A stretch of DNA of 64,000 nucleotides from IMG/VR virus record IMGVR_UViG_3300037193_002967, positions 8,174 to 72,173 of that record. One strand, 5' to 3'. The translations under genes were made by a program, and so were the position numbers. The DNA comes from a virus. The stretch's first letter is position 1. The number at the start of each line of letters is the position of its first letter. Positions 7,962 to 51,615 of this stretch are shown here, piece by piece. The notes under the pieces were generated by a model that saw only the letters and a list, made by a program, of their open reading frames with translations, was not told the origin of the DNA and made no database searches.

Positions 7962-8223
7962 CTTCTTTTAAACGGTTCTCCACCTCGTAAAATATGAGAC
8001 TGGTGGCCATTATTAAATAAGCTTCTTCTAGTGAATTTTCGGCAAAATCCAATACTTCTATGATAAGATCACCTTTATTAAAGACGCCCCCCAAGGGTGG
8101 ATTATTAAGAGTGGTGTCAATTTTTTTTTCAACCAGATCAAGCAATTCCTGTTCGCGTTCCTCAGAAATTCCAAACGCATCTGATAACGAAGAAGAATCT
8201 TTTTTAAGTAAGTTTCGTATCAT
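7945..8223 (-). CDS. Small protein, paralogue family
   Basis: SLSDAFGISEEREQELL...AENSLEEAYLI. Confidence 0.6.
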   Translation of the reverse strand: MIRNLLKKDSSSLSDAFGISEEREQELLDLVEKKIDTTLNNPPLGGVFNKGDLIIEVLDFAENSLEEAYLIMATSLIFYEVENRLKEDDNLY

Positions 8224-15291: not shown

Positions 15292-15564
15292 ATGACACTA
15301 CCGAAGGAAACAATTGAAAGGATCAATAAGGATGCAAATAAAATGTGGACTACTGATACGCCCCATATTGGATACCAATTTGGCCCCAAACAAAGAGCGT
15401 ACATTTTTGGCCGCTGCCAGGAAGCTGAACGCGCCAGGGTATTGGTAGAGGCGTTGGAGAAGATCGGTACTTTCTTCCCGAACGTCGATAATGCCAAAGA
15501 CATGAAACGTATTGCAATCGAAGCCCTTTCATCATACAATAAAACGCAGGAAGATGGGATATGA
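15292..15564 (+). CDS. Hypothetical protein
   Basis: Co-oriented ORF. Confidence 0.55.
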   Translation: MTLPKETIERINKDANKMWTTDTPHIGYQFGPKQRAYIFGRCQEAERARVLVEALEKIGTFFPNVDNAKDMKRIAIEALSSYNKTQEDGI

Positions 15565-15967
15565 TTTAATACCAAAAAACAAAAAGCTAGACTCGTTTTC
15601 TGTAGGATGGCTTACATGGCCAATGTTTCTTCAAGAAACAGGTATGGGGTATATATTAGGCTATGGAACAGGGATGAAGCCCGGCAGCTATGTTTATCAG
15701 GGTGGTAACAATGGATCACCATCATCAAATGATGGATATAAGGTTTCATCAAAAGAAGCGAAGATGATGGCGGCCGTTGCTCGTGGATATGTGTCAGTAC
15801 AAAGGTATGTCAATAAAGAATGGGAAGCTATACCAGCCGAACAGTTACCTAGCTACGAAAATGCACAAGCAGGGATATATCGGGCCAAGATTCACGAAGA
15901 TCATTTAGTGAAACTTGAAAAATTTGCTGACTTCGCAGAAGAATCGGGTGGCTTTTCAATTAATTAA
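15554..15967 (+). CDS. Hypothetical phage protein
   Basis: MGYDL...SNDG...FAEESGGFSI; ATG at 15554. Confidence 0.65.
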   Translation: MGYDLIPKNKKLDSFSVGWLTWPMFLQETGMGYILGYGTGMKPGSYVYQGGNNGSPSSNDGYKVSSKEAKMMAAVARGYVSVQRYVNKEWEAIPAEQLPSYENAQAGIYRAKIHEDHLVKLEKFADFAEESGGFSIN

Positions 15968-15979
15968 ACACCATCAACA

Positions 15980-16327
15980 ATGCAAAAGGAAACAATATTT
16001 GAAATGAATGAAGTGATTGCCCGGTTTATGGCGCTTGAAGAACGACATGACGAGTGGCGAGCACCGCATCCAACCCTTGTATTTCTTTATGATAATGCGT
16101 GGACGCCAGTACCTCGACTAAAATACCATTCATCATGGGATTGGATCATACCAGTTTGGATCAAGTTCAGAAAATTAGAGTTAGATAATAAATATTTTTC
16201 CGAATGGTGTAATAGTTTAAGCTGGTATTTATATAGTTCGGACGAACCTTCTCGCTTTGCAGAAAGACTATATTATGCTATTCAATGGTATAATAAATAC
16301 AGTAACTCGTACTCAAATTTGTGTTGA
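15980..16327 (+). CDS. Hypothetical phage protein
   Basis: NEVIARFM...YHSSWDWIIPV motif. Confidence 0.65.
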   Translation: MQKETIFEMNEVIARFMALEERHDEWRAPHPTLVFLYDNAWTPVPRLKYHSSWDWIIPVWIKFRKLELDNKYFSEWCNSLSWYLYSSDEPSRFAERLYYAIQWYNKYSNSYSNLC

Positions 16328-16406
16328 GTAAAGTGGAGTATAGTACTGCTATGTAATGTCGGGTGCCGTTCAGTGATGCGCCGTTATGTCTAGTATTGTA
16401 AAGTTT
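16322..16406 (+). repeat. NGY-NN pentamer array 1 (17 units), putative guide RNA
   Basis: tgttg agtaa agtgg agtat agtac tgcta tgtaa tgtcg ggtgc cgttc agtga tgcgc cgtta tgtct agtat tgtaa agttt; 17/17 have GY at positions 2-3. Confidence 0.9.
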
Positions 16407-16423
16407 TTAAAACAATAAAGTAT

Positions 16424-16990
16424 ATGATCTACACAGTAAAAATCGAAGGCGTTACGCCTTATATGCAACATCGCATGGACGATGTTAAATTAGCCGACTG
16501 GGAAAAGAACCGCAAACAGATCATCGAACGTCCGGATGTGGCCCTCGAAGATGCAAAGCGGGCGGAATATCATTGTTACAGAAATAAAGATGGGCATTGC
16601 TATATCCCATCAGAACAGCTTAGAATAGCTATGATCAATGGAGGCACTTACTTAAAAAGTAAAGTTGGTACTAAAACCAAAAGTATGAAAGGCATTATTG
16701 CCGCTGTTCTTCAAATCACCCCTGAGCAAATATTGCTGCCAGATTATGATGAAATTGATAAAAGGTCAGCCGTAAATAAAAATGTTAAAGCCAGGGTAAT
16801 GGTGATCCGCCCAAAATGGTCCCAGTGGGAAACCCAGTTTGATATGATCTTGGATAATGGGACTCTTACAAAAGAAATGCTTACAGAACTTGTAAATGTT
16901 ACTGGTAATTATGTAGGCATCGGAAGTTATCGGCCTACTAACAATGGGTATTTTGGTAGATTCAAATTAAATGATATTTGCATAAAGTAG
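16424..16990 (+). CDS. Stand-alone Cas7/RAMP-like RNA-binding protein
   Basis: RAMP hallmarks: N-terminal strand IEGVTPYMQH, YIPSEQLRIAM (cf. Cas7-group IPGSSLKG), VIRP, and C-terminal Gly-rich loop GIGSYRPTNNGYFGRF. Confidence 0.8.
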   Translation: MIYTVKIEGVTPYMQHRMDDVKLADWEKNRKQIIERPDVALEDAKRAEYHCYRNKDGHCYIPSEQLRIAMINGGTYLKSKVGTKTKSMKGIIAAVLQITPEQILLPDYDEIDKRSAVNKNVKARVMVIRPKWSQWETQFDMILDNGTLTKEMLTELVNVTGNYVGIGSYRPTNNGYFGRFKLNDICIK

Positions 16991-17080
16991 AGTGATGCGA
17001 TGTTTTGCGGAGTAACGCAATGTTATGCTAAGTCACGTCAAGCGCAATGAAGTAACGTCCTGTACCGTATAGATTTTTTT
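16986..17080 (+). repeat. NGY-NN pentamer array 2 (17 units + AGATTTTTTT)
   Basis: agtag agtga tgcga tgttt tgcgg agtaa cgcaa tgtta tgcta agtca cgtca agcgc aatga agtaa cgtcc tgtac cgtat; 16/17 GY. Confidence 0.9.
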
Positions 17081-17089
17081 AAATAATAA

Positions 17090-17179
17090 AGTAGCGTCGC
17101 GTTACGTTGGGCTAAGTTAGGTGGCTGTGATGTAGGGCAAGGTGTTGTGGGGCGAAGCGCAGTTTAGTATAGATTTTTT
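17090..17179 (+). repeat. NGY-NN pentamer array 3 (16 units, one extra C at 17125)
   Basis: agtag cgtcg cgtta cgttg ggcta agtta ggtgg [c] tgtga tgtag ggcaa ggtgt tgtgg ggcga agcgc agttt agtat, then agatttttt. Confidence 0.9.
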
Positions 17180-17210
17180 AAATTTACTTAATTAAGATAT
17201 TTTATTTTGT

Positions 17211-17317
17211 TGCGATGCAATGTTATGTCATGTAAAGAAATGTACGGTGGAGCAAAGTAATGTCAAGCCACGTGTAGTATCGTCAAGTCAAGAATAGTAA
17301 AGTTTAGTATTGATTTT
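17211..17317 (+). repeat. NGY-NN pentamer array 4 (20 units)
   Basis: tgcga tgcaa tgtta tgtca tgtaa agaaa tgtac ggtgg agcaa agtaa tgtca agcca cgtgt agtat cgtca agtca agaat agtaa agttt agtat, then tgatttt; 18/20 GY. Confidence 0.9.
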
Positions 17318-17345
17318 ATAGCCACTAAAAATATTTTTATTATAC

Positions 17346-17475
17346 TGCTGTGCGTAGTTATGCGTGGCGGCGTAATGTTAAGTTGTGTAAAGTGGAGTTT
17401 AGTAAAATAAGGTGGAGTAAAGTAATGTCAGGCCACGTGTTGTATGGTAAGGTCAAGTTTAGTATAGATTTTTTT
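17346..17475 (+). repeat. NGY-NN pentamer array 5 (24 units)
   Basis: tgctg tgcgt agtta tgcgt ggcgg cgtaa tgtta agttg tgtaa agtgg agttt agtaa aataa ggtgg agtaa agtaa tgtca ggcca cgtgt tgtat ggtaa ggtca agttt agtat, then agattttttt; 23/24 GY. Confidence 0.9.
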
Positions 17476-17489
17476 CAAATAAAAGAACA

Positions 17490-18146
17490 ATGGAGAATAG
17501 CAAACTACCAGGTGAGGTAAAGAAAAAAATAAGGCATTCAGCACATCGAGCAACTGATGCCGAAGAAGCCCGCTTGAAACAGAAGAATATTGACTATGGC
17601 CGCATGATTAGCCATTTGGGTGGTTTTACCGTTGGCCACATTGCTGGCGCTATTGAATGGGCAGAAAAATGGTGGGAGGTGTACGAGGAAAACGGAAGAA
17701 TGGCAATGAAGGTTACTGAGCTGTGGGAAGAGAACGAGAATCTGAAGAAACAACTTAATCACTATGAACTTTTTGAAATAAATATCAAAGCTGGGATGCC
17801 TGAAAATGAGGCTTCATTCCAGTCTGGATATACTTGTGGTCACGATGTCGCAGAGGATAAGTTAAAGAAGGAGAGCGAGAGGCTGAAGGCGGCACTGAAT
17901 AAAATCATTAACGTATATCCATCGGTAACTGGCGCTAACAGAATGCGTGATATAGCGGCCGAGGCACTGGCATCAAAGGGAAAGGAGGGAGAGAAAAAGA
18001 TAGTGATAGGCGAAGCACCGGACCTGGGCGATTGCAAAGAGTGCAAGACAGCGAAAGCTGAACACGATTATAACGGCCATCAGTATTACGTCTGCAATAC
18101 GTGCTTTGATCGGCTGTCCCGAGAATTCGAAGACGAATATCAGTAA
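17490..18146 (+). CDS. Hypothetical protein, coiled coil with C-terminal Zn ribbon
   Basis: CKEC...CNTC. Confidence 0.6.
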   Translation: MENSKLPGEVKKKIRHSAHRATDAEEARLKQKNIDYGRMISHLGGFTVGHIAGAIEWAEKWWEVYEENGRMAMKVTELWEENENLKKQLNHYELFEINIKAGMPENEASFQSGYTCGHDVAEDKLKKESERLKAALNKIINVYPSVTGANRMRDIAAEALASKGKEGEKKIVIGEAPDLGDCKECKTAKAEHDYNGHQYYVCNTCFDRLSREFEDEYQ

Positions 18147-18168
18147 GCACTAAACAATCAAAACAATA

Positions 18169-18423
18169 ATGGATAAGCAACAATGCCCTGAGTTCCCGCA
18201 TTTCGGCGCACGTTACCCAGATGCGCGGTGTATTGATGGGTATCTATGGGATCTGGATTCAGATAATGATGGCATGTTTACTCGTGGTGGTGATGATCCG
18301 TGCCCGTTCTGTAATACCGAACAGTACATTGAATTTCTTTTGGATGAGCATAACGGTGTAACTAGGTCACAGATTGAGCAGCACATCCAACAACTTAGAA
18401 ACCGTTACCAGCACCCAGACTAA
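18169..18423 (+). CDS. Hypothetical phage protein
   Basis: HFGARYPDARCIDGYLWDLDS...PCPFCN. Confidence 0.65.
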   Translation: MDKQQCPEFPHFGARYPDARCIDGYLWDLDSDNDGMFTRGGDDPCPFCNTEQYIEFLLDEHNGVTRSQIEQHIQQLRNRYQHPD

Positions 18424-18543
18424 CCCCTCAAAAAGATAAATAATGGAAAAGTTTTGGACCGCAGCGGGCATTGGAGTTGTCATCCTCTGCTTTCTTTTAG
18501 GTATGGCATTGATCATTTACATCACAAACAAATATGATAAATA

Positions 18544-19653
18544 ATGGAACAATACCCAGGCTCATATTATCAACCACTTTTCGACTATATACATGACCAG
18601 CATGGCACTCTGCTATTAGAAAGTGAGTGTCAAGAAATTATTGAAATTGTCAATAAGATGCAAGCCACCCAGCCGCCATCCAATACAGCGGTAGAGGAAG
18701 AAACAGTACCCGATCTTTCTGCGGCAACAGACCAGGAAAAGGCCGATTTTATTAATGGTCTTATCAAAATTGCGTCCCGGGAGATTTTAAAGGTCTTTGT
18801 TATGCTGGGATTAAAGAGCCATATCGAAACTACAGTTGTTAATGAAGCTACCGGAGACGCATTTCTATTTAGCTTTCGGAAGAAGGGAGCCGCATCCACC
18901 CCACAAGGTGCAGCAGACCCCGAAGCACTAACCATTGCCGATTACGAAGAAGTCTTAGCCGATCACCGCCGCCTGGTTCGAGAATTGGATACCATCATCA
19001 ACGGCGAGAATGCAGCCAAACAAGCCAGTTTATGCGATATGGTGAAACAGTTAGAGAATGAATGGCCGAAGAGGCGAGGGGCGGTATGGGTGAATGGTGT
19101 TAAATGGCCGGAGGGGAGGCATAATGAGGTACACTGGCGTACCGTTCGCGATAAACACCCGGTACTTGTGGTTGGCAGAAATCATGTTGATAACATCGTA
19201 GCTCAATTCGGGAAGGTTTATCTGCCGTCAGACCTCGAATACCTCGACGAAAGCGGACTCCAATTTACTCAGGGTGATGCGGTATGGGTGAAGGGTGATT
19301 ATGAGCGGTTGTATCATCAGATAAAAAGTGGGAAGCGCACGGTGTGTTTTATAGATTATACCCCATTCGGGCAAGATAAAACCTTCCGGGATATATGCAC
19401 CATCAGAGCCGAAACAATGGAATTCACCTCACGCGGCCACGGGTATGGCGGCGGCAAGTACCAGGATGCGGTTTATGAGAAAAAAGAATTTTTGGAGGAA
19501 TGTAAGAAATTGAACGTCGAATGGCTCGACGAATCCCCATCAAACCAAAGCGATGCGGTGGAGTTCTTAGATTATCTACAGAAACATGGTTTTTATCTTT
19601 CCCTCATTTATAGTAATGAACAACTATACGATCAATTCAAAAACCAACCATAA
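18544..19653 (+). CDS. Modular hypothetical protein
   Basis: Internal repeated boundaries AVWVxG ... [YW]LDES. Confidence 0.65.
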   Translation: MEQYPGSYYQPLFDYIHDQHGTLLLESECQEIIEIVNKMQATQPPSNTAVEEETVPDLSAATDQEKADFINGLIKIASREILKVFVMLGLKSHIETTVVNEATGDAFLFSFRKKGAASTPQGAADPEALTIADYEEVLADHRRLVRELDTIINGENAAKQASLCDMVKQLENEWPKRRGAVWVNGVKWPEGRHNEVHWRTVRDKHPVLVVGRNHVDNIVAQFGKVYLPSDLEYLDESGLQFTQGDAVWVKGDYERLYHQIKSGKRTVCFIDYTPFGQDKTFRDICTIRAETMEFTSRGHGYGGGKYQDAVYEKKEFLEECKKLNVEWLDESPSNQSDAVEFLDYLQKHGFYLSLIYSNEQLYDQFKNQP

Positions 19654-19844
19654 TGGCTAAACAAAAATTGACACCAGCGTATTGGCATGAAGCGTGTGAT
19701 AGAACATTTTGTGTTCAACAAATAATTGATAATTTATTATCTCAGCATCCTGCTATTTCCCAAACCCCTCACTTAAAAATTAAGATTGAACAGTTACAAG
19801 AAATATTAAGTGAAATATACCAGGAAACAGGAGCTAAAATGTGA
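19653..19844 (+). CDS. Hypothetical protein
   Basis: TAATG coupling; WHEACDR motif. Confidence 0.55.
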   Translation: MAKQKLTPAYWHEACDRTFCVQQIIDNLLSQHPAISQTPHLKIKIEQLQEILSEIYQETGAKM

Positions 19845-51464: not shown

Positions 51465-51615
51465 TGAAAGCGAATGGATTCGAACCATCAATACAAATGC
51501 GTGGAAGCCGCACTCATATTTTTAGGGAACTATCGTTGGGATTCCACCCCCTATTTTCGCTCCTTTTTTAGCCGACCCTAACGGTCGCTGCGTTTACCAA
51601 TTCTGCTACACTTTC
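51465..51615 (-). ncRNA. tRNA-like RNA with a long insert in place of the anticodon/variable arm
   Basis: Acceptor GAAAGTG/CGCTTTC, D region TAGCAGAATTGGTAAACGC, T arm GATGG-TTCGAAT-CCATT. Confidence 0.6.

Follow-up and report, generated by a model that had tools for sequence, protein, structure and literature searches.

A Cas7-like gene among arrays of five-base units

The 64,000-nucleotide stretch of viral DNA analysed here (the window; positions 8,174 to 72,173 of IMG/VR record IMGVR_UViG_3300037193_002967) carries on its plus strand a gene for a 188-aa protein, set among arrays of five-base units, N1-G2-Y3-N4-N5, in which a G and the pyrimidine after it recur and the other three bases vary. 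The complete record measures 72,173 bp and has direct terminal repeats, and phage genes lie nearby, so the locus is virus-borne. A reading of the bare sequence (the original prediction) had pointed to a nine-unit block shared by two of these arrays. Our analysis makes it likely that the locus is a VIPR (Viral Interference Programmable Repeat) system of a phage, made up of a vipr gene and six or seven genes for the guide RNAs called vrRNAs, and that the two blocks are guides against the starts of genes of the DUF2188 family. The identification as VIPR is based on the homology of the protein to Vipr, its Cas7/Csm3 fold, the presence of same-strand arrays only beside the gene, and the recurrence of the module.

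The 188-aa protein matched no Pfam family, and its PHROGs family, phrog_4652, has no known function. A phmmer search against all PDB sequences returned a sole significant match, 36pp_D (E 2.1e-7), named 'SUSP1 Vipr protein', with residues 4-182 aligned to 5-187. For an AlphaFold2 model based on 31 relatives (pLDDT 78.1, pTM 0.73), the top Foldseek folds were Csm3/Cas7 of type III and type VII CRISPR complexes (E ~7e-6, TMq 0.45-0.61), and a G-x-x-x-G-I-G-S-[YF]-R-P loop was conserved in the Vipr alignment.

The pentamer register proved to be real and local. A scan of the window for NG[TC]NN in succession, with a minimum of 6 units and no more than 1 miss, found long runs on the plus strand only, at 16322-17465; they comprised 17, 17, 7, 9, 16 and 24 units. 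Outside this interval the window holds four 6-unit runs, and no run of 7 or more units was found elsewhere in the whole 72,173-bp genome. The same arrangement recurs around related genes. A search of a large protein collection gave 801 relatives of the window Vipr at E <= 0.001 among 836 candidates. Of 20 viral loci, the 14 with a protein identity of 49-80% have plus-strand arrays adjoining vipr, and at least one plus-strand array was present in 75 of 80 metagenome loci; all 110 loci together contained 272 plus-strand and 76 minus-strand arrays. No plus-strand arrays were found beside five relatives at 22-27% identity (L017-L021; handles of this kind are our own), and L023, at 26% identity, had minus-strand runs only. 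The closest relatives in named genomes (59-60% identity) lie on contigs binned with Bacteroidota, in metagenome-assembled genomes (MAGs) of Draconibacterium orientale and of a member of the Cyclobacteriaceae.

A G-Y recurring every 5 bases is reminiscent of RNA-binding proteins that form rings or filaments, and before the protein had been identified our first reading was that the arrays are not guides but protein-binding or sponge RNAs, or DNA-level replication or packaging repeats, with a periodicity that only loads a filament protein. This now appears very improbable, given that the neighbouring protein is a Vipr homologue, that the strand of the arrays and their position relative to vipr are conserved, and that the agreement of the variable bases with actual genes and an actual promoter region goes far beyond chance (see below). 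With the match to 36pp_D, two candidates were dropped, a TRAP-like RNA binder forming a ring or filament and a sponge RNA.

VIPR was described only in 2026, and the published systems are presented here from parts of three preprints. According to these, VIPR combines a minimal RAMP protein (Vipr) with vrRNAs that contain 9-16 YNNGG repeats; each GGY is bound by one Vipr protomer, NN pairs with double-stranded DNA, every third base of the target (mostly a codon wobble position) is skipped, and the bound gene is silenced (10.64898/2026.04.26.720920, 10.64898/2026.04.26.720927, 10.64898/2026.10.15.759431). With the described type II systems (Escherichia phage SUSP1, Pseudomonas fulva prophage) the window shares a small RAMP-like Vipr, same-strand vrRNAs of 5-nt units on both sides of the gene, a fixed G-Y, hypervariable NN, period-3 codon-aligned targets, phage carriage and a conserved vrRNA 3' end. 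Of the features that mark a VIPR locus, a Vipr protein, flanking same-strand pentamers, an in-frame target match with a 1-nt skip and carriage by a virus were found. The strict GGY form was absent; the unit N-G-Y-N-N corresponds to 'YNNNG', one of the variant repeats 'NNNGG, YNNNG and NNNNG' named in the methods of 10.64898/2026.04.26.720920. The system is already known, and the central claim of the original prediction, that positions 4 and 5 carry the specificity, agrees with the published code (10.64898/2026.04.26.720920) and with the presence of a vipr gene at the locus; the core of a code now in print had been rediscovered from sequence alone.

The modelled fold also resembles that of the Cas7/Csm3 backbone of class 1 CRISPR systems, which likewise places one protomer on each guide segment and periodically breaks the duplex with its thumb (10.64898/2026.04.26.720927). 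In contrast to these systems, the period in the window is 5, not 6, and specificity sits inside the repeat units. No repeat-spacer array was found in the window with TRF, Rfam returned only tRNAs over the window, and scans with Pfam and PHROGs found no cas families among 10 open reading frames (ORFs) of 11.6-19.7 kb.

The vrRNA genes (Table 1) share a short 3' motif, (AGTTT) AGTAT AGA followed by a T run; the exact 19-mer occurs at two sites, and a third has 2 mismatches. The sequence AGTTT AGTAA AATAA that closes vrRNA5a can be inferred to be the remnant of such a tail. Two features weigh against a simple assignment to VIPR as published. First, the vrRNAs with their tails fold no better than shuffled sequences (z = 0.4, 0.7, 0.2 and -1.0), and the tail of ~10-15 nt plus U run has no predicted structure, whereas that of the SUSP1 clade, the only clade for which this is reported, is ~40 nt long and contains a pseudoknot (10.64898/2026.04.26.720920). 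Second, the clade of the window Vipr appears to lack the vap gene, which is 'typically' found beside vipr; no conserved vap gene adjoins vipr in the 110 loci. Neither the short unstructured tail nor the missing vap gene was found in the examined parts of the three VIPR preprints. A scan of 16200-17600 for sigma-70-type promoters and terminators gave nothing above shuffles, no differences were seen inside the arrays among contigs from four DNA runs of a single study, no RNA run was found to hold the locus, and blastn of 15900-18200 against a phage database returned no match.

Table 1. The vipr gene, vrRNA arrays and nine-unit blocks in the window. Triplets join N4 N5 of one unit to N1 of the next.
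Feature	Position	Strand	Description
vrRNA1 array	16322..16410	+	17 NGYNN units upstream of vipr; ends AGTAT TGTAA AGTTT plus T run
vipr	16424..16990	+	188 aa, minimal RAMP/Cas7-like protein, phrog_4652; between first and second array
vrRNA2 array	16986..17080	+	17 units, one (AATGA) without G2; begins on the vipr stop codon; tail CGTAT AGATTTTTTT
vrRNA3	17090..17179	+	7 units, extra base at 17125, 9 units; tail AGTTT AGTAT AGATTTTTT; one RNA or two
vrRNA4 ('array 4')	17211..17319	+	20 units including tail AGTAA AGTTT AGTAT TGATTTTAT
Block A, in vrRNA4	17246..17290	+	triplets GGA AAA AAT CAA CAC GTA ATC CAA CAA (GKNQHVIQQ)
vrRNA5a	17346..17410	+	10 units, then degenerate tail-like AGTTT AGTAA AATAA without T run
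vrRNA5b	17411..17475	+	block B, then tail AGTTT AGTAT AGATTTTTTT
Block B, in vrRNA5b	17411..17455	+	triplets GGA AAA AAT CAG CAC GTT ATG AAG CAA (GKNQHVMKQ)

One of the arrays departs from the regular phase. In array 3 (17090-17170) the register shifts by one base at 17125 (GGTGG-C-TGTGA), and when the extra base is kept, the spliced variable bases form, by eye, an open frame on the reverse complement. Array 3 might represent a single RNA built on a 6-nt unit, a pair of RNAs, or an array 'staggered' like the one named in the legend of fig. S18 of 10.64898/2026.04.26.720920.

Two related guides and the starts of DUF2188 genes

Both block sequences quoted in the original prediction were confirmed in the window. 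Blocks A and B are identical at 39 of 45 bases, and their differences at unit positions 1 to 5 number 4, 0, 1, 1 and 0; the change at position 3 is C/T, and 17 of the 18 NN bases are the same. Chance does not account for the likeness (of 27 comparisons at the three free positions, 22 match; binomial P = 2.4e-8 with the base composition of the family), and of the proposed origins, duplication or recombination, the 39/45 identity makes duplication plausible. That the differences concentrate at position 1 has weak statistical support from this pair of blocks alone (at least 4 of 5 differences on 9 position-1 sites of 27, P = 0.030; with position 3 included, P = 0.089).

A search of all loci found four further guides with the NN of the block in other phages (L035, L038, L044 and L042, the last the same as L005), giving a family of six guides from five phages with the common NN series (GG/AA) AA AA CA CA GT. 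Read as triplets, the family spells GGN AAR AAT CAR CAY GTN, that is, Gly-Lys-Asn-Gln-His-Val, preceded by ATG in three of the six guides and by ATT in a fourth (L038); the AT of these four falls on the start codon of the target. We then scanned viral contigs with the NN of the four guides from outside the window, allowing N at each skipped base, and obtained at least 82 matching stretches. Among the matches listed there were 80 loci with 80 matches, 73 of which had an in-frame ATG, GTG or TTG no more than 9 nt upstream; 72 of these 73 ORFs were 70-79 aa long and began M(x)GKNQHVVP. All three ORFs tested belonged to PF09954, DUF2188 (E 1e-25 to 1e-27), and matched phrog_3220 and PADLOC PDC-S16 (E ~1e-39). 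PF09954 was present in 72 of 401 sampled Bacteroidota genomes, and no DUF2188 gene was found in 14 VIPR phage genomes or in the 110 loci. Nor did the guides have a target in the phage's own genome or in the related loci (skips of 0-2), the highest scores there being no better than those of shuffled guides.

The two guides of the window match the first codons of such genes as well. Over ten units, vrRNA5b agrees at 19 of 20 NN bases with the alleles L275 and L281 (MAKGKNQHVVKH), and together with its preceding unit it resembles AAA GGT AAA AAT CAG CAC GTT GTA AAA CAT of Bacteroidota DUF2188 genes. The core of vrRNA4 equals the MGKNQHVVPH allele L320 over 19 nt, and its flanks fit less well (NN 17/20). 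L320 came from a search of 401 genomes of one order with the vrRNA4 pattern at up to 3 mismatches, in which most matches were chance; of the five places fetched, L320 and L321 were DUF2188 by translation, and L318 and L319 were rejected because their translations are not DUF2188. At 3 mismatches the same pattern also recurrently matched, in many genomes of that order, AAR GGN AAA AAR CCN CAG GTN ATH GAY CA (KGKKPQVID; for example G495:C1:694004-694032), which is probably the coincidence of a conserved motif. The original prediction held that the two guides may hit related alleles of one target; that they address two allele types is, as judged from these sequence matches, well supported as to the gene family.

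Several results count against DUF2188 as the target of the window guides themselves. A perfect allele was found for neither vrRNA4 nor vrRNA5b, the best NN matches being the 17/20 and 19/20 given above. Scanning viral contigs with the NN of blocks A and B gave 6 loci with 4 distinct sequences (~3.5 expected by our own estimate), none of them convincing, with no extension, no open frame and N1 equal to the skipped base in 2-7 of 19 units. DUF2188 as the putative natural target in the host is proposed from homologues. The pattern of blocks A and B at up to 3 mismatches gave only chance hits in 15 related phage genomes, like its backwards-read controls. A guide-space pattern for more DUF2188 guides in viral contigs returned only the known G001.

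What a DUF2188 gene would be to such a phage is a matter for comparison of two readings. The family is a candidate for anti-phage defence, as its match to PADLOC PDC-S16 suggests; two papers call DUF2188 a predicted defence component, one of them a putative effector in a Sediminibacterium Thoeris island. This, and its occurrence in 72 of the 401 Bacteroidota genomes (prophage and chromosomal copies not told apart), would speak for a host defence gene. Alternatively, the natural target may be the DUF2188 gene of competing prophages or satellites, or another gene sharing the GKNQHV start, a reading to which we give serious weight although somewhat less than an even chance. It is consistent with the 73 of 80 listed viral-contig matches that are DUF2188 starts, many of them in provirus-sized records of ~33-41 kb, with the published natural targets of vrRNAs, mostly satellites and prophages (10.64898/2026.04.26.720920, 10.64898/2026.10.15.759431), and with a guide that targets another VIPR phage (L100, below). 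The putative target, the start of DUF2188, is itself a difference from the type II systems as presented. DUF2188 was not found as a recurrent target in the examined parts of the three VIPR preprints; the term is absent from the examined text of 10.64898/2026.10.15.759431, and no VIPR paper was among the matches listed in a full-text search for DUF2188.

Searches with other guides of the window and its relatives gave hits at chance level or none, which weighs against the proposed reading. The seeds of vrRNA1 and vrRNA2 gave 3 and 17 hits, respectively, none extending past the seed; the L011 guide ('MYRDK...') gave 0 hits in viral contigs; and 9 hits of the L014/L098 guide ('LYDFEQRLFS'), in low-complexity frames, were judged to be chance and rejected as targets. 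Guides that read as ATG followed by at least 9 open codons numbered 12 of 191 arrays against ~9 expected by chance on a rough estimate, that is, no enrichment. As a separate observation, the L011 guide belongs to a family present in two phages (L011:2782 and L074:1606) that reads ATG TAT CGT GAY AAR GA... (MYRDK...); in the stretch common to both members N1 differs twice, each time synonymously.

The first base of the unit

The published code in the tested type II systems reads only NN, with the skipped base flipped into a pocket of the protein (10.64898/2026.04.26.720920, 10.64898/2026.04.26.720927). If the window's clade followed this canonical scheme, only N4 N5 would pair and N1 would be relaxed scaffold; the codon-like look of N1 would come from ancestry plus transition bias, and its agreement with an intergenic target (below) from luck or recent origin. 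We regard this as possible but rather unlikely. We give slightly better than an even chance to the reading that the base skipped in canonical VIPR is here matched, and probably paired, by N1.

The variability of N1 is the first point of difference from a base held by the protein. Over 804 units, which were collected in a way that fixes G2 and Y3, the entropy was 1.85 bits at N1 and 1.90 bits at each of positions 4 and 5. Because position 1 equals positions 4 and 5 in this respect, the scaffold in the window's Vipr clade is G2 and Y3 only. N1 also behaves like the third base of a codon. In the six-guide family the NN of units 2-6 varies in 0 of 10 columns, while N1 varies in 5 of 6 (Fisher 0.0014). 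After Lys, Asn, Gln and His codons all 24 guide-by-codon cells have an N1 of the synonymous class (purine or pyrimidine), and N1 transversions appear only after four-fold boxes (Gly, Val, Pro), a pattern that argues against relaxed scaffold.

A match outside coding sequence points in the same direction. We compared 191 distinct arrays with 14 whole VIPR phage genomes (994,883 bp) under skips of 0, 1 and 2 nt, with reversed-order controls. A single pair reached NN 20/20, guide L100:1839 and phage G010, under the 1-nt skip and against a chance expectation of 0.002. With the other two skips and with the reversed-order controls the highest score was 18 or 19 of 20. In the L100-G010 pair, N1 and the skipped base agree in 8 of 10 units (P = 0.0016), so that 28 of 30 consecutive bases match (L100:1839-1918 against L154:3160-3207 of G010, minus strand). 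The site is intergenic, ~40-90 bp upstream of a gene (L154:2787-3119) for a 110-aa product that looks like a helix-turn-helix protein, and because it is intergenic, codon drift cannot explain the agreement of N1. Taken from sequence, the pair looks like promoter targeting of one phage by another. Like the solo (orphan) vrRNAs and the vrRNAs aimed at rival VIPR phages (10.64898/2026.10.15.759431), the L100 guide matches another Vipr phage; in contrast to them, its site lies ~8 kb from the vipr of G010, at a putative promoter and not in vipr or a vrRNA gene, and L100 has its own vipr.

Two further results bear on the canonical scheme. Stop codons are depleted in the triplets formed by N4 N5 and the next N1 (98 against 119.7 +/- 7.5, tails trimmed; z = -2.9). 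This depletion is specific to that pairing: three of four control pairings were flat (same-unit N1, N1 two units on, antisense), and the fourth, the reverse complement of the same triplets, was raised (z = +2.5). By alignment, one of the residues that contact the unit also differs. In SUSP1, G1 is read by H17/D177, G2 by R138/W178 and Y3 by R179 (10.64898/2026.04.26.720927). D177 aligns to Ser168 of the window protein, and Ser occupies this position in 26 of 26 sequences of the NGY clade (alignment A1), whereas the G2 and Y3 contacts are kept (R129, Y/F169, R170), as is H16; these correspondences come from a HMMER alignment of 0.60 accuracy and not from a structure. Compared with the type II systems, the first G of GGY is free in the window's clade, the Asp that reads it appears to be lost throughout the clade, and N1 appears to follow the third base of the target. 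The change from Asp to Ser fits, at the level of sequence, a loss of G1 reading. Neither this change nor target-like behaviour of N1 in the YNNNG clade was found in the examined parts of the three VIPR preprints. The skipped base of published VIPR mostly aligns to codon wobble positions (10.64898/2026.04.26.720920, 10.64898/2026.10.15.759431).

Other observations favour the canonical scheme and weigh against pairing of N1. The 24 cells are not independent, the six guides being related. Guide L044 matches allele L255 at 20 of 20 NN bases and at only 3 of 10 N1, and vrRNA5b matches at N1 in 5 of 10 units. In a hand count by family, two-fold and four-fold boxes had indistinguishable proportions of N1 transitions and transversions (13:8 versus 5:5, P = 0.70), although counts by pairs, which are non-independent, showed a difference (30:13 versus 11:15, P = 0.042); the overall excess of transitions at N1 (13 of 21, P = 0.007 against an expected 1/3) agrees with transition bias. 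The antisense reading, for its part, showed no stop depletion. Finally, in block pairs selected evenly on positions 1, 4 and 5, N1 differed about twice as often as NN (11/36 versus 11/72; Fisher P = 0.078). Equal rates at these positions had been named as the outcome that would speak against the original prediction, and the trend, on few data, is toward that prediction; a twofold difference is expected of a wobble base and of an unread base alike. The part of the prediction that took position 1 for drifting scaffold did not hold, in view of its entropy, the synonymous-only changes in the guide family and the 8/10 target match of the L100-G010 pair.

Relatives of the module and a possible mechanism

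The surroundings of vipr are not conserved. None of five window ORFs around vipr had a match in the 110 related loci, and clustering of flanking ORFs left vipr alone common to all; the next two clusters (32 and 13 loci) held minus-strand ORFs only and are taken, from example coordinates, to be antisense shadows of vipr. The cassette of vipr and arrays sits among unrelated genes even where Vipr is 86% identical (window 15500-19700 against the 110 loci), and it may move as a unit.

Array form varies among relatives. On a contig of the Draconibacterium orientale MAG (L024:3583-3940) three vrRNA arrays end in ACAATGGTTT followed by ...CCCTGGTTCGATTCCnGGGG..., which is similar to a tRNA T-arm, and these ends may be a tRNA-like 3' processing element that replaces the U-run tail. 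Distant relatives of Vipr (22-37% identity) have other units: those of L026, on a metagenome chromosome, and of L027, from Paracoccus, are CGCNN, and that of L028, from Polyangiales, is the canonical GGCNN. L030, L031 and L023 carry NGTCN-like runs on the strand opposite vipr. Elsewhere in the window, a weak third Rfam tRNA match at 51465-51615 (minus strand; 30.6 bits, 151 nt), not called by ARAGORN, may be a tRNA with an insertion.

By analogy with the solved SUSP1 system a mechanism can be sketched. Each vrRNA would be transcribed from its own A/T-rich upstream region and end at the U run; Vipr protomers would polymerise on it, one per unit through G2-Y3, with the variable bases turned toward double-stranded DNA. 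A guide in coding-strand sense would pair with the template strand at the start of DUF2188 and so block transcription. N4 N5 would correspond to codon positions 1 and 2 and the N1 of the following unit to position 3, where the choice between purine and pyrimidine would cover synonymous codons. The guides of vrRNA4 and vrRNA5b would then be duplicates tuned to two allele types of the DUF2188 target. Since the differences between the blocks lie mostly at position 1 and in the last units, they would reflect wobble differences and amino-acid differences, respectively, between target alleles: the duplicates may have diverged at the wobble-equivalent N1 and in the last two or three units, widening the range of alleles covered. 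In the strongest form of this sketch, each unit would supply three adjoining bases for pairing (N4, N5 and the N1 that follows), the guide would read an uninterrupted target in steps of 3 nt, with only G-Y held by the protein, and the two guides would shut off DUF2188 as a counter-defence at its start codon; this form we put forward tentatively, as a hypothesis with a rather low probability. Expression, RNA ends, filament formation, silencing and pairing of N1 enter the sketch as predictions.

If a clade of VIPR does match the third base, the code would be tunable, from 2+1 to 3+0 bases per unit, by a change in the G1 pocket of a protein whose tested members read two of three target bases. Such tunability would bear on the engineering of these filaments and on the relation between a gapped code and the contiguous one of CRISPR. 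The putative target here can be named: guides in five related phages point to the start of DUF2188, and a very common, uncharacterised small protein would gain a testable role in conflict between phage and host or between phage and prophage, with guide, target and protein at hand for experiments. The silenced gene may be either a host defence gene or a gene of a rival prophage; if the former is true, VIPR would act as RNA-guided counter-defence and not just in warfare between mobile elements.

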